A stretch of DNA of 64,000 bases from Actinomycetota bacterium (GCA_016717115.1 JADKGE010000003.1:85037-149036), one strand, 5' to 3'; shown: positions 4,905 to 19,110, counted from the stretch's first letter. Numbers and translations are program-made. Notes: generated by a model from the letters alone, not told the origin.

Positions 4905-5200
4905 CGGTGCTCAGGCTCGGGCGGACCAGCCACGGAACGTACACATAGGTGCTCGCACTGCCCGTCGCCCTGTCTCCATGGCCCTCAGTGTCTCTGCGTG
5001 TCACTCAGTGTCACGAAACCTGTTGATAGGCAACGAATCCTGGAGGCGACCCCATGTGTGGGCGCAGTCTCCTAATGCTTATGTGCGGGGCCAAATCCCC
5101 GAGGCGGCTCCAGGCAAGACGGACATTCTGAAGGGCAACTGCCCAGGTCGTGGTGCGGGGAGGGTCGCCGTACCTGCCTGGTAGCGGCGAATTGACACTG
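4905..5200 (+). repeat. Structured intergenic element, copy B (left module like A, core and 3' modules like C)
   Basis: The core hairpin is CGGGG 5096-5100, loop CCAAAT, CCCCG 5107-5111, followed by AGGCGGCTCCAGGCAAGACGGACATTCTGAAGGGCAACTGCC. CCTGGAG 5039-5045 is complementary to CTCCAGG 5118-5124. A 3' hairpin lies at 5165-5190, then TTGACA at 5192-5197. Confidence 0.75.
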
Positions 5201-5851: not shown

Positions 5852-6073
5852 CCTCTGAGCAGGTCGCCTGGATCGCGGGGCCGAGGGCCTCGTTCCCATC
5901 TCCCGTGTCAAGAAGGTGGCATCCTCGACGTGCGATCGAACCCGAGTCCAAAAACCTAGGCACCCTCGACGTCTTCACCAGCAGTGGAGGCGGCCGGTCG
6001 CAGCGGGGTGCCGAGGGGCATACTCTGCGGCCCTGAGTGAGTTCTCGTGGCCGGAAGAGGAGGGTCGAGCCCC

Positions 6074-8359
6074 ATGAGGTTCCAGGCTTTCGTTGCCGTG
6101 ATCCGCCGGTACTGGGCGACGACACTCCTCGTGGCCATCGTGCTGGTCGCTGGAGTGGTGACCGGGGCGCTGTGGCAGGGCGTCGCAACAGGCACATCAC
6201 TCTTCGAGAACGTCGCCTACGGTCTGCCGGCGCTGCAGGCCGGTCGCTGGTGGACGTTCCTGACCGGGATGGCCTTCGCGCCGCAGCCGGTGCTGTACAT
6301 CCCGGTCCTCGTGCTCGTGGCCTGGGCGGCGAGCGTGTACGAGCGCCGCGTCGGTCACGTTCGAACCCTGGTGGTTGCCATCGGCGGCCAGGCCCTGGGC
6401 GCCCTGCTGACCGCACTGTTCTTGATGCCGTTCGACGAGAGTGGCTGGACCTGGGCACGCGACCTCGGCAACGAGTACGACCTCGGCATCTCCGCCGGTG
6501 GACTTGCCCTGGTCGGAGCGCTTACGGCTGTCATGCAGCCCATCTGGCGTACCCGCGTCCGCGTGGGAGTGTTCGCGTATCTCATCGCCATGGTGCTCAA
6601 CTCCGGGTTGCTGTGGGACGTCGAGCACGTCGTGGCGTTCACGATCGCCGTGATGGCGGGTCCCTACCTGGCGGGTCGCCGTCCGAGCAGGCCGGTGTTC
6701 AGCTTCCAGCGCCGCACCCAGCGGTCGCTCGTGGCGCTGATCATCGCGGTCACGGCAGTCACGTCAGTGATCGAAGGCATGTTCCCGGGGACGGGCGGGC
6801 CGTTCCAGTCCGAGGGCTCGGCGCAGCACTCGACAGGTTTCGGCCTGGGCTTCATCGTCGGGGCGCTCCTCCTGCTCGTACTCGCTGATGGCCTCAGGCG
6901 TGGGCGACGCGTGGCGTGGATTCTCTCGACGGCGTTGCTCCTGCTGACCCTCGCTGGGGCGATCGCCGCTGAGCCGAGTTCAGAGCGCACCGCCGACATC
7001 TTCCTGGCATCCGCTCAGCTCCTTCTTCTCCTCGTCACTGTCCGCGCGTTCAGTTCGCGCCCACAGCAGCGGGCCGTTCGCCGCCTGGGCAAGCGCGTGC
7101 TCGTCGGCGGGGGAATCCTCATCGCCTACACGGTGATCGGGGCGCTCGTCCTGCAGGACGACTTCGCCGATCAGACTCTCCTGGCCGGACTGTTCGTCGC
7201 CTCGCTCACGGTGCTGTGGGTGGGGGCACTGTTCATGCTCGTGGTGGGGCTGGTGTACTCCAGCCGCCGCCCGGAGTCCGGAGCGGATGACGACGTGCGG
7301 CTCCGCGAGTTGCTGCGCAGCAGCCCCTCCTCGAATATCGAGTGGATGCTGACCTGGAAGGGCATCTCGGTCTGGTTCTCGCGGGACGGCCAGACCGCCA
7401 TCGGGTACGAGGTCGTGGGCTCGGTGGCCCTGTGCCTCGCAGACCCCGTCGGGCACTTGGACAGACGACTGGCCGCCCTGCACGAGTTCGACGAGTACTG
7501 CTTCGCGAACGGCTGGATCCCCTGCCTCTTCGCCGCGAGCCAGGCGACCGCGGACATGGCGCCGGACCTGCGGTGGAAGGCGATCGAGGTGGCCGAGGAC
7601 AGCGTGATGTCGCTCGACAATGTCGAGTTCGCCGGGAAGTCATGGCAGGACGTGCGTACCGCGCTCAACAAGGCCGGCAAGCAAGACATCGAGCTGCTGC
7701 CCACCCAGTGGGCGGACTGCGGGCCGGTGTTCACCGACCAGTTGCGGGCCATCAGCGGCGAGTGGGTCGGTGAGAAGGCGCTGCCCGAGATGGGCTTCAC
7801 CCTCGGCACCCTGCGGGAGGCGGACGACCCGGAGGTACGCCTCAACCTGGCGGTAGGGCCGGACAAGACGGTCGAGGGGTTCACGTCATGGATGCCAGTG
7901 GCCGAGAACGGGGAGGTCGTGGGCTGGACTCTCGACCTGATGCGTCGGCGTGACACGGGGTTCAGGCCGGTGATGGAGTTCCTTATCGGCGCATCGGCAC
8001 GCCAATTCCACGAGGAGGGCTACCGTTTCATCAGCTTGTCGGCGGCTCCGCTCGCGAAGGCCCCGACGGAGCTGCAAGGCAGCAGCGACGAGCAGGTGCT
8101 GCAGAAGCTGCTGAACCTCCTGGGCACCGTCCTCGAGCCCTACTACGGATTCCAGTCGCTGTTCCGGTTCAAGGAGAAGTTCAACCCCGAGCACCGGCCG
8201 CTGTACCTCGTGTTCCCTGACGAGACCGCCCTGGCCGAGATCGGCCTGGCGGTGGCACGGGCCTACATGCCTGACGCCGGGCTCGTCGACTGGGTGCGGA
8301 TGGGCTGGGAGATGGTCGTACCGAAACACCCGGTACCCCAGTCAGGAGGCACCGCATGA
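6074..8359 (+). CDS. Aminoacyl-phosphatidylglycerol synthase (MprF C-terminal DUF2156 domain) fused to a polytopic N-terminus with a rhomboid-like segment
   Basis: The C-terminal 350 aa (IEWMLTWKGISVWFS...GWTLDLMRRRDTGFRPVMEFLI...YRFISLSAAPLA...YYGFQSLFRFKEKFNPEHRPLYLVF) match the LPG-synthase C domain. ATG at 6074 follows GGAGGG; GTG at 6047 is an alternative start. Confidence 0.75.
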   Translation: MRFQAFVAVIRRYWATTLLVAIVLVAGVVTGALWQGVATGTSLFENVAYGLPALQAGRWWTFLTGMAFAPQPVLYIPVLVLVAWAASVYERRVGHVRTLVVAIGGQALGALLTALFLMPFDESGWTWARDLGNEYDLGISAGGLALVGALTAVMQPIWRTRVRVGVFAYLIAMVLNSGLLWDVEHVVAFTIAVMAGPYLAGRRPSRPVFSFQRRTQRSLVALIIAVTAVTSVIEGMFPGTGGPFQSEGSAQHSTGFGLGFIVGALLLLVLADGLRRGRRVAWILSTALLLLTLAGAIAAEPSSERTADIFLASAQLLLLLVTVRAFSSRPQQRAVRRLGKRVLVGGGILIAYTVIGALVLQDDFADQTLLAGLFVASLTVLWVGALFMLVVGLVYSSRRPESGADDDVRLRELLRSSPSSNIEWMLTWKGISVWFSRDGQTAIGYEVVGSVALCLADPVGHLDRRLAALHEFDEYCFANGWIPCLFAASQATADMAPDLRWKAIEVAEDSVMSLDNVEFAGKSWQDVRTALNKAGKQDIELLPTQWADCGPVFTDQLRAISGEWVGEKALPEMGFTLGTLREADDPEVRLNLAVGPDKTVEGFTSWMPVAENGEVVGWTLDLMRRRDTGFRPVMEFLIGASARQFHEEGYRFISLSAAPLAKAPTELQGSSDEQVLQKLLNLLGTVLEPYYGFQSLFRFKEKFNPEHRPLYLVFPDETALAEIGLAVARAYMPDAGLVDWVRMGWEMVVPKHPVPQSGGTA

Positions 8360-9912
8360 CCGCCGAACTCGACGGCTTCGAGTTGCAGGCGGCGATCGGC
8401 TCCGCCGCGACCGCGTCCGGGCATCCGGTCCTGAACGCCGGTCGAGGACAGCCGAACTGGCTGGCCACACAGCCACGCGACGCTGCCTTCGTGCTCGGGC
8501 GCTTTGCCCTTCGCGAAGCACGTGCCTCGAGCACGCATCCCGAATGGGGAATGACCCCCAACAGCGAGGGAATCGCTGACCGCCTCGCTCGGTCACTCAG
8601 CTCGGACGAGTCGGAGGGCGCGGACTTCCTGCGCAGTGCCGTCGAGTACGGGGTCACCACGTTCGGCTTCGAGCCTGACGCGTGGGTGCACGAGCTCGCG
8701 CGGGCCGTGCTGGGCGACGGGTACCCGTCGCCCAACCGCATGTTGGCCCACATCGAGAAGGTGATGGAGCGCTACCTGGTGGAGGCCAGCGGGGCGGAGC
8801 AGGCGCCTGTCGGCACGTATCAGGTGTTCGGCACAGAGGGCGGCGCGGCCGCGATGGCCTATGTGTTCCGGTCGTTGCAGGAGAACGGAGTGATCCGGCC
8901 TGGCGACAAGGTCGCGATCGCCACGCCCGTCTTCACCCCCTACCTGCAGATTCCGGTGCTCGAGGACTTCGGGCTCGAGGTGGTGCCGATCCACGCTGCG
9001 CACAACAGCCCGTCACGGTTCACCGACGACGTACTCGACCAGCTCCTCGATCCCGAGATCAAGGTGTTCTTCCTCGTCAACCCGGGAAACCCAGACAGTC
9101 GCGCGGTCAGACCGGAACGGCTGCGCGCCCTGCGTGACCTGGTCACCGAGAACCGACCTGATCTCGTCATCGTTGCCGACACCGTCTACGCCACGTTCGT
9201 CGAGGACTTCCGGGGGATGCTGGCCGACCTGCCTCATCACGTCGTCAGCGTGCACTCATTCTCCAAGAACTTCGGTGCGACTGGTTCGCGACTTGGCTTC
9301 GTCGCACTCCACCGCGACCATGTCCTCGACCGGATCCTTGCCGGCCAGGACGAGGAAATCCGCCAGGTGCAGGCGGACCGCTACTCGTCTCTGACGTCGG
9401 ACGTCACGGCGCTGTCCTTCATGGCTCGGATGGTTGCCGACAGCCGCGAGGTGGCGCTGCACAACATCACCGGCCTGGCCACGCCCGATCAGCTTCAGAT
9501 GGCGTTCTTCGCGCTCGCGTACCTGATGCCCTCCGGGCGGTCCTACATCGCGGCGACGCGCGCCGAGCTGGCCGCGCGCGATGCCGCGCTCCGGGCTCCG
9601 CTGCAGATCCCGCCGCCTGGCGGTCAGGACAGCATGTACTACGCACTCGTCGACCTGCTGCAGGTCACCGAGGCGCTCTGCGGTCCAGGCGGAGTCGAGC
9701 GCCTGATGGCCAGTCAGACGCCGACGGCGATCCCGCTCAAGCTCGCGCAGGAGTACGGCGTGATCGTCCTGCCGGGTCAGCTCTACGGCGCGCACTCGTG
9801 GGACGTCCGCGTCTCGCTCGCCTCTCTGACCGTGGACGAACTTGGCCGCGTGGGAGCCGCGCTCGCCGCAGTGCTGACGGACATGGCAGGCCTACCGGTC
9901 CGAGGAAGGTAG
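8356..9912 (+). CDS. Aspartate 4-decarboxylase-like class I/II PLP aminotransferase
   Basis: The ATGA overlap with the preceding stop suggests translational coupling. LNAGRGQPNWLATQPRDAAF and the PLP-lysine block SFSKNFGATGSRLGF resemble the AsdA family. Confidence 0.65.
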   Translation: MTAELDGFELQAAIGSAATASGHPVLNAGRGQPNWLATQPRDAAFVLGRFALREARASSTHPEWGMTPNSEGIADRLARSLSSDESEGADFLRSAVEYGVTTFGFEPDAWVHELARAVLGDGYPSPNRMLAHIEKVMERYLVEASGAEQAPVGTYQVFGTEGGAAAMAYVFRSLQENGVIRPGDKVAIATPVFTPYLQIPVLEDFGLEVVPIHAAHNSPSRFTDDVLDQLLDPEIKVFFLVNPGNPDSRAVRPERLRALRDLVTENRPDLVIVADTVYATFVEDFRGMLADLPHHVVSVHSFSKNFGATGSRLGFVALHRDHVLDRILAGQDEEIRQVQADRYSSLTSDVTALSFMARMVADSREVALHNITGLATPDQLQMAFFALAYLMPSGRSYIAATRAELAARDAALRAPLQIPPPGGQDSMYYALVDLLQVTEALCGPGGVERLMASQTPTAIPLKLAQEYGVIVLPGQLYGAHSWDVRVSLASLTVDELGRVGAALAAVLTDMAGLPVRGR

Positions 9913-9922
9913 CCCCGGATGT

Positions 9923-11302
9923 TCAGGCGCGCGAGCGGGCGCGCTGTGCCTCCATGTGCACGTCGAACTCCTCGCGCCACGTCTCGCTAACCGCGATGCC
10001 ATTGCGCCGAGCCTCCTCGGTGCTGAGCTCGACCGGGAAGCCGTAGGTGTCGTAGAGGACGAACAGCTCGGCACCGGTGACGCCGGTGGCCCGGTGCCCC
10101 TTCAACTGCTTGATGCCCTTGCGAAGGGTCCTACGGAAGGCCTGCTCCTCCTTCGACAGCACGTCGATGACTGAGTCGGCGTGCTCGGAGACCTCGGGGA
10201 AGTGATGCGTGTAGATGCCGGAGATCGTCGGGACGATCTGGGGAAAGAAGTTCTCCTCCAGCCCGAGGTCGAACGCATACCGGGTGGCCCTGCGGATGAG
10301 CCGTCGCATGACGTAGCCCTGTGCCTTGTTGCTGGGGCGTACGCCGTCGACAGCGAGGAACGTGGCGCCGCGCAGGTGATCGGCGATGACTCGCATCGCT
10401 CGTGTCTCGTCCTCGTAGCGCTTGCCAGACAGCTCCTCGAGCTTCTCCACGATCGGCCACAGCAGCCCGATCCGGAAGACGTCGCCGGTGTTGATGGCTG
10501 CGGCGGCGATGCGGGCGAGGCCGCCGCCGTAGTCCACGTTGCGACGAGGCAGGGGCTCGAAACCGGTCTCGGTGCGTCGGTACTCCATGAAGACGGAGTT
10601 CCCCAGCTCGATGAAGCGCCCGCAGTCGCAGTTCTGGTGACAGTGTGGCCCGTAGGCTGGGTCGTGCTCGATGTCCGGGAAAAGGTAGAACACCTCGGTG
10701 TCTGGTCCGCCGGGCTCACCCACGGGCATGTCCTCTGCGGTGCCGCCGCGGCACCACCAATTCTTCTTGCCGTAGAAGGCGATGCGAGCGCCACCGGTGC
10801 CCTGCAGAGCAGCGTTCTCCTCGCTACCGAGTTCCACTTGGTCTGAGGAGATGCCAGCTGCCGTGAACAGTTCGGTCCAGATGCCTGCTGACTCGGTGTC
10901 CTTGGGAATGCCGTGGGCGGGGTCACCGATGAAGCAGGAGACGTAGATGCGCTCCGGGCTCAGTCCCACTCGCTCGGTGAGGAACGTCCAGAACTGCCTG
11001 ATCTGGACATCCTTGAAGTAGTCGCCCAGGCTCCAGCAGCCGAGCATCTCGAAGAAGGTGGTGTGACGGCTGTCGCCGACCTCCTCGATGTCCTGCACGC
11101 GCAGGCATGTCTGACTGTCGGTGAGACGCCGGCCATCGGGATGGTCCTGTCCGAGCAGGTACGGGAGGAGGGGCTGCATGCCGCTGCCCGTGAACAGGGT
11201 CGTGGGGTCATCCTTCGGAATCAGCGGAGCACGCGGGATAACCGTGTGGCCTTGCTCGGCCATGTACTCGAGAAAGGCACTGCGAATCTGATCGGCGTCC
11301 AT
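9923..11302 (-). CDS. Alanine--tRNA ligase catalytic-fragment paralog (aminoacylation plus tRNA-recognition domains only; no editing or C-Ala domain)
   Basis: From the ATG at 11302, MDADQIRSAFLEYMAEQGH...DDPTTLFTGSGMQ...HTTFFEMLGCWSLGDYFK...VIADHLRGATFL...PSNKAQGYVMRRLIRRA...LYDTYGFPVEL...MEAQRARSRA is collinear with E. coli AlaRS residues 1 to about 461 and stops there. Confidence 0.8.
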   Translation of the reverse strand: MDADQIRSAFLEYMAEQGHTVIPRAPLIPKDDPTTLFTGSGMQPLLPYLLGQDHPDGRRLTDSQTCLRVQDIEEVGDSRHTTFFEMLGCWSLGDYFKDVQIRQFWTFLTERVGLSPERIYVSCFIGDPAHGIPKDTESAGIWTELFTAAGISSDQVELGSEENAALQGTGGARIAFYGKKNWWCRGGTAEDMPVGEPGGPDTEVFYLFPDIEHDPAYGPHCHQNCDCGRFIELGNSVFMEYRRTETGFEPLPRRNVDYGGGLARIAAAAINTGDVFRIGLLWPIVEKLEELSGKRYEDETRAMRVIADHLRGATFLAVDGVRPSNKAQGYVMRRLIRRATRYAFDLGLEENFFPQIVPTISGIYTHHFPEVSEHADSVIDVLSKEEQAFRRTLRKGIKQLKGHRATGVTGAELFVLYDTYGFPVELSTEEARRNGIAVSETWREEFDVHMEAQRARSRA

Positions 11303-11660
11303 GAACCTATTCGACACTAGGCGTGGCCACCCTGTCAGACGATCCCACCACCGGCCGCCGCCGTCGTGACAATGCGTGCCCAGTTTGCGGGCTACTCGAA
11401 ACTCGACTAATCTCACGACCGATCAAGGGGGATGCGCACTTGGGGCGCCCCGCCAGGTTCAACTCCTGGGTCCTCCACAATGCGCCGCTGGCCGCCTGTG
11501 AGGCGGCCAGCGGCGTTGTTCGTAAGCATCCATGCTGGATGCCTTCTAAGTCGCATCCACTATGCGGCTCGCCGTGGGACCGCTGCACCTCGTCGACAGC
11601 CGACACCTCCCGAACGCGCACATCGAGAATGCGGTCGCAGCGCGAAGTCCTTGATATGAA
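11303..11660 (-). promoter_or_regulatory. Long structured 5' leader of the AlaRS-like gene (candidate attenuator or riboswitch-like element)
   Basis: A 13-bp perfect hairpin spans 11484-11514. GCATCC (11526), GGATGC (11537) and GCATCC (11553) allow mutually exclusive pairings. A CCAGG-N7-CCTGG hairpin lies at 11453-11469. GGGUGGCCACGCC on the minus strand lies 20-35 nt before the start. There is no convincing SD. Confidence 0.35.
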
Positions 11661-11705
11661 ACGGTTTCATGTCTGCTGGAATTGCGCGCACGCCAAGGAC
11701 CGGGC

Positions 11706-13235
11706 ATGGTTCCGCTGTTGGCTCACCCCGTCGAAGGGCTCCTCGTGCGTGGATTCCGTACCTCCCGTGTGTTCGCTTGGATCGGCGTCGGTGCTGTTGC
11801 CGCCGGCGTCCTCGTATCTGTCCCGGCTCCGGCGGCCGCCGCGTCCACCCTGCCGTGGGCGTCATGTGGCGAGGCGGGCCTGGATGCGGGGGGCTTCCAG
11901 TGCGCCACGCTTACTGTCCCGAAGGATCGCAAGAATCCCAAGGACGGCACGATCAAGCTCGCGGTCATCCGGCATCCCAGCACGGGCACACCGGAGCAGC
12001 GCATCGGCTCACTGGTGCTCAACCCGGGCGGTCCAGGCGGCGCAGGAACCGAGGTCGTCGAGCCCATCTGGGCAGCCCTGCCTGACGAGATCAAGGCCCG
12101 CTTCGACCTGGTGTCGTGGGATCCTCGCGGAGTCGGCCAGTCCACGCCGGCGCTGAAGGGCTGCGACGCGCCGTGGCCAGACCGGCCCGACACCGGCCCC
12201 GTCAACTGGGCGAAGGTCGCCACGGCGTTCCAGAAGACCCTGGCGAAGGCCAACGCCGACTGCCAGGCGAAGAACGCCGACCTCGTCCCCTTCATGGGGA
12301 CCAACGAGAACGTCGAGGACCTGGACCGGCTCCGGGCCGCGCTCGGCGACGAGAAGCTGACGTTCTGGGGTATCAGCTACGGCACGCGCATCGGATACCT
12401 GTACGCACTCAAGCATCCCGAGCGCACCCGAGCCATCATCCTCGACGGCTCCATCGATCCGGCCGGCACGACTCTGGGCTTCGCCGACGGCGGCTCGGCC
12501 TCTGATCAGGCCTTCGGAGTGTTCGCCCAGCTGTACCCCAAGGCCGCGGCCGCGATCCAGCTCTCGCTGGCGAAGCTGAACACGAAGACCGTTCCCCTGC
12601 CCAACGGCACTGAGCTCACCCGCTGGGATGTCATCGACTTCGTCTACAACGCGATCGCCCAGGAGCGGGTCTACGCGCCCATCGCCGACCAGGTCGCGGG
12701 TCTGCTCTACGCGGCGGTCTTCGGCAAGGGCGCGCAGCAGGCTGCGGCCGCCGAGGCGGCGGTCGGCGTGTTCGCCCGCCAGCCCAACGCGAACGCGGGT
12801 GGCGTCTTCTCGGTGGTCAACTGCCTGGACTACCCGGGGCGGCCGGGCCTCCAGCAGGCGATCTCTGCCATCAACACGCAGCGTCGGTACGGCCCGGTCA
12901 ACGGCGCCACCACCACGACCTCGTTCGTGCTGGGCTGCTCCGGGCTGTCGATGAAGCCGGACCCCGTCCCGCTCATCGGCGGGCAGGGTCCGGACGTCCC
13001 GCTCCTGATCCTCGGGGCGACGCGCGACGGATCGACCCCCCAGATGTGGACTGCGCGCATGTCGCGGGCGTTCCCCCAGTCCCGCACAGTGACCTACGCC
13101 GGCGGTCTGCACGGCACGTGGGTCGCGAGCAACGGGGACTGCGTGAACTCCGTCGCCAACACCTATGTCACGACGCTGGCACTGCCCGCGACGGACCTCG
13201 CCTGCCCGAACTCCTACCAGCCACCAAGCAACTAG
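11706..13235 (+). CDS. Secreted alpha/beta-hydrolase, tripeptidyl-aminopeptidase-like (S33) serine peptidase
   Basis: ATG at 11706 follows AAGGA. Signal-like N-terminus. LVLNPGGPGGAG, WDPRGVGQS and the nucleophile elbow FWGISYGT are present. Confidence 0.75.
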   Translation: MVPLLAHPVEGLLVRGFRTSRVFAWIGVGAVAAGVLVSVPAPAAAASTLPWASCGEAGLDAGGFQCATLTVPKDRKNPKDGTIKLAVIRHPSTGTPEQRIGSLVLNPGGPGGAGTEVVEPIWAALPDEIKARFDLVSWDPRGVGQSTPALKGCDAPWPDRPDTGPVNWAKVATAFQKTLAKANADCQAKNADLVPFMGTNENVEDLDRLRAALGDEKLTFWGISYGTRIGYLYALKHPERTRAIILDGSIDPAGTTLGFADGGSASDQAFGVFAQLYPKAAAAIQLSLAKLNTKTVPLPNGTELTRWDVIDFVYNAIAQERVYAPIADQVAGLLYAAVFGKGAQQAAAAEAAVGVFARQPNANAGGVFSVVNCLDYPGRPGLQQAISAINTQRRYGPVNGATTTTSFVLGCSGLSMKPDPVPLIGGQGPDVPLLILGATRDGSTPQMWTARMSRAFPQSRTVTYAGGLHGTWVASNGDCVNSVANTYVTTLALPATDLACPNSYQPPSN

Positions 13236-15383: not shown

Positions 15384-15626
15384 GCCTGTCCGGACTAGAT
15401 TCAATGGCTCTGGAGGGTTCGTCGTCCGCGCTGTCGCGTAATGCGTACGTGCGGGGTCCACATCCCCGAGGCGGCTCCAGGCAAGACGGACATACTGAAG
15501 GGCAAGTGCCCTGGTCGGGGCCGGACCAGCCGTCCGGTACGTCTCAGAGCGGGGAGCGGTGACCTTCTCCCCCGATCCAATGCGGACCGAGTCGCCGTAC
15601 ATCCGAGGTAGCGGCGAGTTGACATG
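15384..15626 (+). repeat. Structured intergenic element, copy C (B/C subtype)
   Basis: CTGGAG 15410-15415 is complementary to CTCCAG 15475-15480. The core hairpin is CGGGG 15452-15456, loop TCCACAT, CCCCG 15464-15468. A 45-nt block at 15469-15513 is about 93% identical to 5112-5156. A 3' hairpin lies at 15591-15617, then TTGACA at 15619-15624. Confidence 0.7.
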
Positions 15627-15758: not shown

Positions 15759-15864
15759 CCGGTGTGGCAATGTTGGAGCCGCAATCGCGCGGAATCCGCC
15801 CCTAGCTTTTCGCGTGGGAGAGGTGAAGCCGGACATCGGGCCGGCAACGGCAGCAGGAGGCATC

Positions 15865-16221
15865 GTGACCGAGTACCTCATCTACTTCAACCAGCAGTGG
15901 GTGGGCGACCACACCGAGGAGTGGTTCCGTCAACGTGGACCGCTCGCGATGGCGGTCATCGACGAGATGAGGGCTGCCGGCGTCTACGTGTTCGCCGGGG
16001 GCCTCGAGGAGGACGCCGGCAGGGCCTTCAGCGCAGACGCGACAAGTGGCGCTTTGTCGTTCACCGACGGGCCATTTGTTGAGACCAAGGAGTTCCTGGG
16101 CGGGTTCACAGTGGTGGACGTCGCCGACGACGAGGCAGCCAAGGTGTGGGCGGGCAGGATTGCCGAAGCTTGCGGCTGGCCCCAAGAGGTTCGCCGGTTC
16201 AAGTCGCGGCCGCAGGCCTAG
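15865..16221 (+). CDS. YCII-related domain protein
   Basis: GTG at 15865 lies 5 nt after AGGAGG. TEYLIYFNQQW...GVYVFAGGLEE...DGPFVETKEFLGGFTVVDVADDEAAKVWAGRI is typical YciI-like. Confidence 0.75.
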   Translation: MTEYLIYFNQQWVGDHTEEWFRQRGPLAMAVIDEMRAAGVYVFAGGLEEDAGRAFSADATSGALSFTDGPFVETKEFLGGFTVVDVADDEAAKVWAGRIAEACGWPQEVRRFKSRPQA

Positions 16222-16334
16222 GACCGCACAGTGACCCTTCCTGGAGGTTCGGCGGGGGCGGTGAGCCAAGGCGCGACAGGGACACAGCGACCAGCAGCCG
16301 CCCACGGGATGTTCGAAACTGAAGAGTTCACCCG

Positions 16335-16706
16335 GTGAGCGACGAGGGGCTTGCGCGCCCACCCGGAGCGTTCGTCATGGGCCTGATCGTCGTGCGGTTC
16401 CTGCTGGAACTCGCGCTCTGGTCGTCCTTCACGATCTCGTGCGTTCGGCTGATCGATGGGCCGCTCGGCTGGGTTGTTGGGGCGCTACTCACGTCGATGT
16501 CCATTGCGGTCTGGGCTGTGCTTCTATCCCCTCGTCGTCCCGTTCGGTTGCCGGTAGGGGCACGCGTCGCTGTTGAGCTGGCGTTGTTCATTGTCGCGGC
16601 CTCGCTCCTGGCTGCGGCGGGCCTCGCCATGGCCGGCGCCGTCTTGCTCGTGCTCGAACTGCTCGACCTCGGTCTCCTCCAGGGCCCCGACAAGCATGCA
16701 CTGTGA
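16335..16706 (+). CDS. DUF2568 (YrdB-like) small membrane protein
   Basis: VRFLLELALWSSF...AVWAVLLSPRRPVRLP...ELALFIVAASLL fits the pattern. GTG start at 16335, with an alternative ATG at 16377. Confidence 0.55.
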   Translation: MSDEGLARPPGAFVMGLIVVRFLLELALWSSFTISCVRLIDGPLGWVVGALLTSMSIAVWAVLLSPRRPVRLPVGARVAVELALFIVAASLLAAAGLAMAGAVLLVLELLDLGLLQGPDKHAL

Positions 16707-16893
16707 ACGTCTGTCGTCACCGAGCCCATTCACGTTGGCACGGTCTGATGCCCGTTGGGCTCATGCGATGCGCAAGTGCCTGGCGTCGAAGGATTCGGTG
16801 TCGTGACGGACCCCCCCGCCGCACTGCCGGCCCACGTCGGCCGCTGGCTCTGTCGACAAGGCTCCTCACCGCGGGCGTCAGCTACGCGTCCGA

Positions 16894-17199
16894 TCAACCA
16901 GCGCCACGAGGAGGCGTTCTATGAGGCCGTAGGGAAACACGCAGGTGCACGAGATGCAGCTCGTCGATCGAGAAGCACGGCATCTTGTAGCGCACCGATT
17001 GGCTGATCCCCGGTGCCGCACGATGAATGGCCTGCCGCACTTGCTGAGCGATCGTGTCCGCGTCGCCTTCGAGGACTGCCATGAAAGCATCAACGGCGTC
17101 GAAGGCTGTATCGATGCACGGACCTGGCCTCCGGGATCGCAGAGCGTAGCCGAATTCGCCAACTTGCAGGGATCGGTTGGCCGATCCGGCCAGCCGCAC
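16894..17199 (-). CDS. DUF1801 (YdhG-like) domain protein, possibly degraded
   Basis: VDAFMAVLEGDADTIAQQVRQAIHRAAPGISQSVRYKMPCF matches the DUF1801 N-terminal half. The expected C-terminal half is missing or sits in another frame (VFPYGLIERLLVALVD). Confidence 0.3.
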   Translation of the reverse strand: MRLAGSANRSLQVGEFGYALRSRRPGPCIDTAFDAVDAFMAVLEGDADTIAQQVRQAIHRAAPGISQSVRYKMPCFSIDELHLVHLRVSLRPHRTPPRGAG

Positions 17200-17278
17200 A
17201 ACGAGCGCTGAGCCGTGGCAGCACAGGCAGCCGCAGGGCGTCCGACCGCAGGACGCCTCCCCGGCGACCGCCTTCGGG

Positions 17279-17989
17279 TCAGGCGGGTTGGTCTGCGCCT
17301 GGGCGGGCCTTGGCGCCTTTGATGAGCAGCCAGAGAGCCAGGCCGACTTCCGCGATGAAGCTGATGGCCCACCCTGGATAGTTGAGGGCGGGATAGTCCG
17401 GCAGCAGCAACGCGCGCAAGAACCAGAACAGGTTGGCGATGCCGTCGAGGATCAGGAGCACGCCGAGGAACCTCGGGAGGAATCCTGACTTGTAGACCAG
17501 GTATCCCAGGGGGAACAGCCAGGCGCTGTAGAACAGTTGGGCCGTGACGAAGACCGTCTTGTAGACGCCGATGGACAGGTACGCCAGTCCGGTGAGTTGT
17601 TCGGCTGAATACGCCTGCAAGTGGCTGGCCTGGTCGCCTTGCAGCATGACGGAGATCAACGGCAGCATGCTCGCGCACTGGATGGCGACGCCCACGGCGT
17701 TGAGCAGAAGGAAGAGCAATGCGAGATGTCTGTTGACCGGACGCAGGAGGACGTAGAGGCCCCAGGCGGCGAGGAGGAAGAGGAATGCCGACAGGAGTGA
17801 GCTCACCAGTCCGAGGCGGAACATCGCGGTATTCGTGGTGATGCTCTCGTACAGACTGTCGGCGCTACTGAGCTCGATGTCTCCGAGCGTGCTCGCGAGC
17901 ACGGAAGTCAGGATGAAAGCGAGGAAGGCGCCGCCTGCGAACCGGGCGACCCTGTCCCGCGACCAGCCGTCATCGAGACTGGCGGACAT
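17279..17989 (-). CDS. DUF4386 family membrane protein
   Basis: 236 aa with 6 predicted TM helices. FRLGLVSSLLSAFLFLLAAWGLYVLLRPVNRHLALLFLLLN...LFPLGYLVYKSGFLPRFLGVLLIL is characteristic. Confidence 0.6.
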   Translation of the reverse strand: MSASLDDGWSRDRVARFAGGAFLAFILTSVLASTLGDIELSSADSLYESITTNTAMFRLGLVSSLLSAFLFLLAAWGLYVLLRPVNRHLALLFLLLNAVGVAIQCASMLPLISVMLQGDQASHLQAYSAEQLTGLAYLSIGVYKTVFVTAQLFYSAWLFPLGYLVYKSGFLPRFLGVLLILDGIANLFWFLRALLLPDYPALNYPGWAISFIAEVGLALWLLIKGAKARPGADQPA

Positions 17990-18198
17990 TCAGCCCCCTC
18001 CTCCCAGTCGGAGTGACGCCGAGCCCGCACGCGGACCCCGTCACCGTCAGGTTCCATGACCTGCCGCCAGGTCCCGCAGGCAGGAATCCCGCCCGGGCGA
18101 CGCTCAGCGAGGCATCCACTCCGAGGGTACGGTGCGCCCGGGTCCCATGCGAGGCAGAAGTTGGCACCTTCAGATGGCCCCGGAGCGGGCTCCCAACT

Positions 18199-18681
18199 TC
18201 ATGTGCTGTGATGCCGGTCGAGCCGGCCGAAAAGATAGCCGACAGATACTCCCAGTGCGAGGATCCGCAGCACGTTGAACAGTGCGGCGATGAGGAAGTA
18301 GCGCGGCGCATCGCTCATTGCGGTCCCGAACTTGGCGGGGCCTTCGACAACCAGTGTGACCACGACGAAGACGGCGGAACACAGCAGCAGAGATTTCACC
18401 ATGGGACTGGTCGACGGAATCCAGTCGAAGAAGCGGACCAAGCAGTAGCTGACGCATAAGCCGATCAGCAGGCCGCCCAACAGCGCCTCCAGGAGCATCG
18501 AAGGGTATTGGATGGCAAGGGCTTCGCGATACTCCGCGGCGAGGGGCGTCAGGGAGATGGCGAAATTGGCGACCCAGAATCCCAGCCCTCCTACCAAGGC
18601 CAGGAGTGCGATCCTTCTCCGCGCCAACTGGGACTGGGACACGCTGCTCCTTCCTTCCGTGCGGGTGTCGGCCGCAACCAC
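18199..18681 (-). CDS. Hypothetical 4-TM membrane protein
   Basis: 160-aa ORF with hydrophobic helices and sensible codon usage. No family recognised. Confidence 0.45.
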   Translation of the reverse strand: MVAADTRTEGRSSVSQSQLARRRIALLALVGGLGFWVANFAISLTPLAAEYREALAIQYPSMLLEALLGGLLIGLCVSYCLVRFFDWIPSTSPMVKSLLLCSAVFVVVTLVVEGPAKFGTAMSDAPRYFLIAALFNVLRILALGVSVGYLFGRLDRHHST

Positions 18682-18854
18682 AAGGTGCCGCCGGCGTTGA
18701 CGGTCCCTCGCGACGCCCGCCCGCCCAGTCTCCTCGCGGGCAAACGTTGATGCTTCGACGGAAGACGAACCTCGGTGGAAACCGAGCCGTGAGACCGGGC
18801 GTGACGCTAGGGGGACGGTCGCGTCCGCGCCTGGGAACCCAGCGTGACGAGCGG

Positions 18855-19110
18855 GGGCACCTGGGTGTCACTCAATGGCACGAGAGTCATTGATACGCAG
18901 AAGAACCCCAAGGGTGAATCCCTGCCTGGGTAGGTCTCGCAGTGCGTGGGTCCGGGGTGGGGAGGAGCGATAGCGACGGTTCCCCCCGGGCGGCCCCACA
19001 GGAAGGGGATTGCGCTGCAACGACTCTTGGCATTGCACGTTGGCAAGGTGAGCTTCGGACATAGCCGCTTGGTTTCGCCCTCGCGCCTTCCTTCGCTCTT
19101 TCCCGAGATC
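18855..19110 (+). repeat. Structured intergenic element, copy D (A/D subtype)
   Basis: GGTGTCACTC at 18864. The core GGTCTCGCAGTGCGTGGGTCCGGGG-[TGGGGAGGAGCGATAGCGACGGTT]-CCCCCCGGGCGGCCCC spans 18933-18996. CTGCAACGACT at 19015 and the TTTCGCCCT motif match copy A. Confidence 0.7.

Follow-up and report, generated by a model that had tools for sequence, protein, structure and literature searches.

Alanyl-tRNA synthetase (AlaRS) has been described as keeping its four-domain prototype throughout biology, the reported exception being the mini-AlaRS of Tupanvirus (TuAlaRS, 461 aa), a natural enzyme that consists of the aminoacylation and tRNA-recognition domains only, is active, and can replace yeast AlaRS (PMC10036535). 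The gene that is the subject of this work encodes a protein of the same two-domain build, here called mini-AlaRS, and is carried by a 64,000-nucleotide stretch of DNA (the window) from an Actinomycetota bacterium (GCA_016717115.1, JADKGE010000003.1:85037-149036). The two enzymes are also alike in their horizontal acquisition between partners in a host association, and differ in that TuAlaRS belongs to a viral system whereas mini-AlaRS is bacterial and comes from an epibiont lineage. By sequence and by tree, the nearest relatives of mini-AlaRS are the short AlaRS enzymes (approximately 600-640 aa; NF002436, PRK01584 type) of Saccharibacteria and other Patescibacteria, with which it has in common motif 1 (LFTGSGMQPL.PYLLG), the CHxNCDC, GNSVF and NVDYGGGL motifs, and the lack of a C-Ala domain. 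The Patescibacteria enzyme, however, retains its editing domain and serves as the sole housekeeping AlaRS, while mini-AlaRS stops about 6 aa past QRARS and coexists with a full-length alaS.

The pairing of an aminoacyl-tRNA synthetase (aaRS) with lipid modification has been described for LysX, an MprF-LysRS fusion of Mycobacterium and Corynebacterium, and for ErdS, an AspRS-DUF2156 fusion of fungi, both of which make the aminoacyl-tRNA for lipid modification locally (PMC10580965, PMC9437257). The likeness resides in a dedicated aaRS module that is paired with a DUF2156/MprF transferase; LysX and ErdS are, however, single polypeptides with a full aaRS, whereas mini-AlaRS is separate, truncated and foreign-derived, and adjoins a transferase gene in a minority of genomes. 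Lipid alanylation that depends on tRNA is itself known in Actinobacteria from AlaDAGS/PesT of Corynebacterium glutamicum and from alanyl-phosphatidylglycerol (Ala-PG) synthases, with partners of the esterase type (PMC6103681). These systems draw on the housekeeping AlaRS, unlike the supply proposed here, and no private AlaRS or aspartate 4-decarboxylase partner for them was found in the literature searched. Lastly, AcmF of ascamycin biosynthesis, from an actinobacterium, is an AlaRS-like protein truncated to the same two domains; its active site is degenerate and it acts as an Ala-tRNA-dependent transferase (PMC12945691), whereas mini-AlaRS keeps the active site of a synthetase.

Literature text searches found no published description of the mini-AlaRS family or of its association with lipid genes, and the review by Fields and Roy mentions neither. 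As an analogy, the system resembles LysX and ErdS in its logic and the Tupanvirus mini-AlaRS in its architecture. The reading favoured here, at slightly better than even confidence, is that mini-AlaRS is a catalytically competent, free-standing enzyme derived from Saccharibacteria, which feeds alanyl-lipid synthesis beside genes for an MprF-like transferase and a decarboxylase.

Domain content and predicted activity

The open reading frame (ORF; 9923-11302, minus strand) encodes 459 aa followed by a stop codon, rather than the 460 aa given by an earlier, sequence-only reading of this DNA; it begins with MDADQIR and ends with MEAQRARSRA, the C-terminus which that reading had reported. Its sole Pfam match is tRNA-synt_2c (residues 5-458 against profile positions 1-429 of 552), and the Pfam profile search detected neither tRNA_SAD nor DHHA1, which bears out the earlier claim that only the aminoacylation/tRNA-recognition fragment is present and that the editing domain and C-Ala are gone. 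Against the alaS equivalog model TIGR00344 the protein scores 346 bits (cut-off 457) and covers only positions 2-427 of 847, while the top NCBIfam model, the short-AlaRS model NF002436, gives 375 bits (cut-off 529; positions 1-436 of 595). It thus lacks both the canonical four-domain architecture of alaS (catalytic, tRNA-recognition, editing, C-Ala) and the editing domain of the NF002436 type, and falls below the cut-off of either model. Only 10 nucleotides (nt; 9913-9922) lie between its stop and the convergent stop of the next gene, which encodes an aspartate 4-decarboxylase, so that an editing domain is not concealed by a frameshift. The same gap has no room for terminators, and the transcripts of the two genes therefore probably overlap.

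Residues 5-458 align to chain positions 6-436 of 3hxu, the crystallised fragment of E. coli AlaRS(1-441). This alignment puts the end of mini-AlaRS near E. coli residue 437-438, where crystallised catalytic fragments are cut, and not near residue 461 as had been proposed; the length of 459 aa is explained by net insertions relative to E. coli. An AlphaFold2 model (predicted local distance difference test, pLDDT, 82; predicted template modelling score, pTM, 0.81) matches 9jdn and 3hxu, both catalytic fragments of AlaRS, on superposition, with template modelling (TM) scores of 0.79-0.86.

The gene is not an artefact of assembly or annotation, nor is it the sole alaS, since a full alaS lies on another contig and the actinobacterial homologues share its endpoint. 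The source genome (3.88 Mb, 20 contigs) carries the full-length gene on contig 6 (G000:C6:245481-248072; 803 bits, TIGR00344 model positions 1-847). A sole alaS or degraded catalytic motifs were the outcomes that, according to the sequence-only reading, would have spoken against it; the second gene was found, and the motifs are intact by alignment. Many homologues of approximately 465 aa, 74-88% identical and labelled 'alanine--tRNA ligase-related protein' by NCBI, occur among the best 120 matches in a large protein collection, with hosts that include Microbacterium, Agromyces, Terrabacter, Humibacillus and Nakamurella. Complete copies in 54 other actinobacterial loci measure 464-489 aa and, with the exception of one frameshifted copy, end a few residues from QRARS; identity across actinobacterial orders is 72-89%.

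A 647-aa frame (L053) was considered as an actinobacterial intermediate that retains the editing domain, and was rejected because its tail is frameshift read-through into nonsense. Decaying copies were seen at L053:8001-9940, frameshifted near the C-terminus, and at G253:C2:149350-150726, which is split over three frames. Two diverged mini-AlaRS genes (L006 and L049) reside on the same contig of Humibacillus xanthopallidus KV-663, about 50 kb apart, one followed by an aspartate 4-decarboxylase gene and the other next to a pair of very large ORFs (887 and 1143 aa) without assigned function.

Conservation across Saccharibacteria, other Patescibacteria and full-length AlaRS defines 76 alignment columns; at 73 of these, no less than 90% of the actinobacterial clade has the conserved residue. 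E. coli R69, W170, N212, V214, D235, G237 and R242 are all present in mini-AlaRS on the 3hxu alignment, and the residues that read G3:U70 are retained: N303 (PSN; RPSNK here) and D400 (YDTYGFP; LYDTYGFP here). Motif 1 is LFTGSGMQPLLPYLLG, which is unlike the canonical form, as had been noticed from the sequence. The motif is nevertheless common to Saccharibacteria, and because their only AlaRS, which must work, carries it, it reads as a lineage signature and not as the functional departure that had been suggested. The absence of the E. coli G71-H74 loop (including K73) was likewise rejected as a special trait, the loop being absent also from Saccharibacteria, other Patescibacteria and the sampled full-length AlaRS. 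Specific to the window protein is a Cys in place of the Asn of the others (E. coli N95). At the site of E. coli GSPEEDGD lies the CHxNCDC cluster (window 10622-10642, residues 221-227), of which C221, H222, N224, C225, D226 and C227 are invariant in 37 actinobacterial plus Saccharibacteria sequences; it may bind a metal within the catalytic domain of the enzymes of this lineage.

An engineered Methylomonas AlaRS(1-429) with the same boundary retains activity toward Ala and Ser, and Ser misactivation in the Methylomonas enzyme depends on Val204 and Leu219 (PMC12143591). The equivalents of these two residues in mini-AlaRS are identical to those of wild-type Methylomonas. Since the catalytic residues are also kept and the Methylomonas fragment is active, mini-AlaRS is expected to be an active, non-editing AlaRS able to misactivate Ser, with mischarging predicted from its retained residues. 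Lacking C-Ala, the E. coli N461 fragment is a poor binder of tRNA (PMC10036535); the Patescibacteria enzymes function naturally in the absence of this domain, which may suit their core to standing alone. A free-standing AlaX-like ORF of 245 aa was observed on contig 1 (G000:C1:485220-485957; L003:1411-2148), with the motifs HSGLH ... ADGGTH and thus an Asp at the site of the zinc-binding Cys of AlaRS editing domains (CGGTH/CGGPH).

Phylogenetic origin

The sequence-only reading had described the gene as an AlaRS paralog. It is indeed a second AlaRS gene beside housekeeping alaS, but the tree nests it in Patescibacteria and it is not a duplicate of the host gene: identity is 39% to the host's own AlaRS and 62-67%, over the full length of mini-AlaRS, to that of Candidatus Saccharibacteria. 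The latter measures approximately 627 aa and, beyond ...MAEQRARSQTATKGTFKGGLGG, runs into an editing domain that ends in ...CGGPHV...SSSAGVRRIKAV. In the complete chromosomes of two Saccharibacteria (764 and 903 kb), the only alaS encodes a short AlaRS of about 630 aa, and enzymes of this type are present in 120 of the 121 Patescibacteria genomes sampled. Some short Patescibacteria-type AlaRS carry foreign inserted domains, namely an alpha/beta hydrolase (P0122), a histidine phosphatase (P0149) and a Ham1 NTP pyrophosphatase (P0172).

Placement against housekeeping AlaRS, which had been proposed as a check, was performed with IQ-TREE on 102 sequences, with supports given as SH-like approximate likelihood ratio test (SH-aLRT) values. 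Mini-AlaRS is separate from the housekeeping enzymes and falls within Patescibacteria. The actinobacterial sequences form one clade (SH-aLRT 100), nested in a clade of 53 rows (SH-aLRT 100) that also includes Saccharibacteria and the closest Patescibacteria; other Patescibacteria are successive outgroups, and the host's own AlaRS groups with full-length bacterial AlaRS. A topology constrained to keep the actinobacterial clade outside Patescibacteria is worse by 166 log-likelihood units and is rejected by the approximately unbiased (AU) test (p = 2.7e-9).

The distribution of the gene is sparse close to home: among genomes of the same GTDB order it occurs in 3 of 301 (the source genome, G054, and G253, where it is frameshifted), and it is missing from all 16 other genomes of the genus. 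Its GC content at third codon positions, 0.83, is like that of host genes, and the transfer is therefore not recent. No relative with more than 60% identity was found on plasmids or phages. From these comparisons it is concluded that mini-AlaRS is a xenolog of Saccharibacteria-type AlaRS and not a local duplicate. Such a gene entered Actinobacteria, lost everything past the linker that follows ...QRARS and precedes the editing domain, and spread patchily among lineages by inheritance and by exchange within Actinobacteria. Saccharibacteria are tiny bacteria that live as epibionts of Actinobacteria, a lifestyle that makes the route of transfer plausible.

Association with lipid aminoacylation genes

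The genes of the window that bear on the proposed function are the following:

6047..8359, plus strand: MprF-like aminoacyl-tRNA:lipid transferase, 770 aa, with LPG_synthase_C (DUF2156) at residues 422-722 (PF09924, 227 bits)
8356..9912, plus strand: aspartate 4-decarboxylase (L-aspartate to L-alanine and CO2), 518 aa (NF006755, 526 bits, cut-off 321; TIGR03801, 500 bits, cut-off 435)
9923..11302, minus strand: mini-AlaRS, aminoacylation and tRNA-recognition domains only (identified by domain profiles, E. coli-numbered residues, tree, AU test and fold)

The start of the decarboxylase gene overlaps the stop of the MprF-like gene (ATGA), and the two form an operon. The N-terminus of the MprF-like protein is a multi-pass membrane region of the rhomboid-like type, and its orthologues at two other loci (L055 and L068) match PF20401 Rhomboid_2; its gene is the only PF09924 gene of the source genome.

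The generality of this arrangement was surveyed in the neighbourhoods of 57 actinobacterial mini-AlaRS loci, with 8 kb as the distance criterion. In 10 loci, the window included, that distance takes in an MprF-like gene of this subtype, marked by a rhomboid-like N-terminus and LPG_synthase_C, whereas chance adjacency, estimated from approximately 2 such genes per 4.5-Mb genome, is about 1%. Orientations vary: in some loci the gene converges on mini-AlaRS, in others the two diverge, and in L055 (15-nt gap), L068 and L027 it lies directly upstream on the same strand. Adjacency requires at least 7 changes on the mini-AlaRS tree and is thus not one inherited arrangement; the base of the clade, where an ancestral adjacency would be read, is an unresolved polytomy. 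At the level of whole genomes, PF09924 is present in all 41 other carrier genomes searched, as compared with 95 of 301 in the order (32%) and 1 of 16 congeners, and the rhomboid-type N-terminal domain, with the first 420 aa of the window protein as reference, occurs in 40 of the 41. Aspartate 4-decarboxylase is present in 8 of these carriers and adjoins mini-AlaRS in five of the 8; the loci with this neighbour are the window, L005, L006, L007, L034 and L038. The three genes are found together within about 11 kb in Microbacterium proteolyticum and Plantibacter flavus, where the decarboxylase is of a different subfamily (approximately 750 versus 500 bits). That two alanine-producing enzymes were recruited independently beside an AlaRS and an aminoacyl-lipid transferase is what most strongly favours a pathway leading from aspartate through alanine and Ala-tRNA to an alanyl-lipid.

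In such a pathway, the decarboxylase would convert L-aspartate to L-alanine; mini-AlaRS would activate the alanine and charge host tRNA(Ala), recognised through G3:U70, without proofreading; and the MprF-like enzyme would transfer the alanyl group from Ala-tRNA(Ala) to a membrane lipid (phosphatidylglycerol, diacylglycerol or similar). The whole would correspond to LysX and ErdS, with their fused parts split into separate proteins that act in trans. In its fullest form, which is put forward tentatively and at somewhat less than even confidence, this proposal holds that the core of an epibiont AlaRS was captured, had its editing domain cut off, and now acts as the private Ala-tRNA supplier of a three-enzyme, trans-acting alanyl-lipid pathway with a rhomboid-type MprF-like transferase.

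Several observations weigh against the supply of alanyl-lipid synthesis by mini-AlaRS. In the window, its gene is convergent to the operon of the other two and lies outside it. At 47 of the 57 actinobacterial loci there is no MprF-like gene within 8 kb, and at most loci the neighbours are unrelated, including an MMPL transporter, a flavin monooxygenase, GlpX and a GmrSD-like nuclease, among others. The co-occurrence is confounded by relatedness and genome size, related genomes not being independent samples, and one family rich in carriers already shows PF09924 commonly (37 of 63). In addition, the MprF-like domain is equidistant from solved Lys-specific and Ala-specific synthases (77 versus 75 bits), so that alanine specificity is indicated solely by the neighbouring genes. 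Finally, motif-3 GLER is changed to GLAR (E. coli E241 to Ala) in about 75% of the clade, the window protein included, which is the sole clade-typical change at a universal position. The channelling to an adjacent lipid synthase suggested by the sequence-only reading is plausible in view of the co-occurrence and of the repeated adjacency of MprF-like and decarboxylase genes, but the 47 unlinked loci argue that it is not general; we infer it most strongly for this window and a minority of genomes. Mini-AlaRS and the DUF2156/MprF transferase are not fused and, in most genomes, not linked, and many carrier genomes have PF09924 open frames of approximately 1130 aa, the length of LysX-type fusions.

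Right beside mini-AlaRS at four loci (L007:11002-12282, L017:9445-10743, L038:6645-7949 and L034:9013-10716) a putative membrane-anchored esterase (PF00756) was observed, which recalls the PesT that accompanies AlaDAGS. The remaining features of the window's neighbourhood are these:

5087..5153, plus strand: 67-nt direct repeat, left copy, 91% identical to 15454-15520
11303..11681, no strand: divergent intergenic region of 379 nt between mini-AlaRS and the hydrolase gene, presumably with promoters
11682..13235, plus strand: alpha/beta hydrolase (TAP-like) with a hydrophobic N-terminus, 517 aa (PF00561, PF08386)
15454..15520, plus strand: 67-nt direct repeat, right copy, paired with the left copy

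The hydrolase is possibly an aminoacyl-lipid hydrolase, but its membership in the module is uncertain, and the hydrolase cluster is unique to the window, adjoining mini-AlaRS at no other locus. No T-box or other known RNA leader was matched in Rfam at E<=1 between 9500 and 12000, and no tRNA gene, hence no dedicated tRNA(Ala), was found anywhere in the window. The repeat pair brackets a 10.3-kb block that holds mini-AlaRS, the MprF-like gene and the decarboxylase gene. Further copies of the repeat family were seen at 1158-1296, 4952-5090 and approximately 18861-18997, cutting the first 19 kb into blocks, and this part of the window looks like a mosaic of islets. Its flanks show conserved synteny in none of 20 congeners, and in the empty-site comparison the matches of positions 1-1150 and 15760-19000 to congeners are confined to scattered pieces, 67-86% identical and spread over different contigs.

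Alternative explanations and significance

Foremost among the alternatives, though on balance unlikely, is that mini-AlaRS is a general auxiliary AlaRS for translation, be it a back-up, stress-induced or inhibitor-insensitive enzyme, and that island assembly placed it beside the lipid genes here by accident. Second aaRS copies are often retained by Actinobacteria for resistance, and a foreign origin would make the inhibitor-contact sites differ from those of the host enzyme; the intact active site, the many loci without an MprF-like neighbour and their widely varying contexts are likewise what an auxiliary enzyme would predict. An enzyme without editing is, however, poorly suited to feed translation, and beside mini-AlaRS no gene cluster for making an AlaRS inhibitor was observed. 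Chance adjacency would also have to account for an MprF-like neighbour that has been gained or lost repeatedly and is found far more often than the estimate allows, for the decarboxylase repeatedly recruited to the same place, and for the presence of PF09924 in every carrier searched.

It is improbable that the protein is not a synthetase at all but, in the manner of AcmF, an Ala-tRNA-dependent transferase or an amino acid:acceptor ligase on the AlaRS fold. AcmF has the same truncated build and depends on a separate AlaRS for its Ala-tRNA(Ala) (PMC12945691), and the motif-3 substitution of most of the clade could be taken in the same sense. AcmF, though, is missing the majority of the residues that bind ATP and alanine, and the two key positions of its active site are altered (N to Q and D to E; PMC12945691), whereas mini-AlaRS keeps N212, D235, R69 and R242 together with nearly all universal columns. 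Its nearest relatives are moreover bona fide sole AlaRS enzymes, and no nucleoside or natural-product genes lie nearby. Very improbable, too, is a deliberately error-prone enzyme that makes Ser- or Gly-tRNA(Ala) for regulated mistranslation or for seryl- or glycyl-lipid synthesis. The missing editing domain and the wild-type Methylomonas residues at the two Ser-misactivation sites (PMC12143591) agree with such a role, but wild-type AlaRS strongly prefers Ala, the neighbouring enzyme produces alanine and not serine or glycine, and mischarged tRNA could be cleared in trans by the editing domain of the full AlaRS and possibly by the AlaX-like ORF. That the gene is a decaying, functionless remnant of a transfer can practically be dismissed: broken copies are known, yet many intact copies share their endpoint across orders, third-position GC is host-like, the universal columns are retained, and the evidence for purifying selection is already strong.

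A supply of Ala-tRNA to lipid synthesis thus remains the preferred reading of mini-AlaRS. The data point to natural mini-AlaRS enzymes as a large and conserved family in bacteria, and to the movement of a core translation enzyme from an epibiont lineage to a host lineage. If the three-enzyme reading is true, this would be the first natural mini-AlaRS family of bacteria and the split counterpart of LysX and ErdS. Its recurrence with MprF-like transferases and an alanine-making decarboxylase suggests that lipid aminoacylation can recruit an aaRS in trans, in addition to fusion. The family also offers natural material for two questions, namely how tRNA is bound by an AlaRS core that has no C-Ala and what lets cells live with an AlaRS devoid of editing, and carriers that can be cultivated are at hand in Microbacterium, Plantibacter, Terrabacter and Pengzhenrongella.

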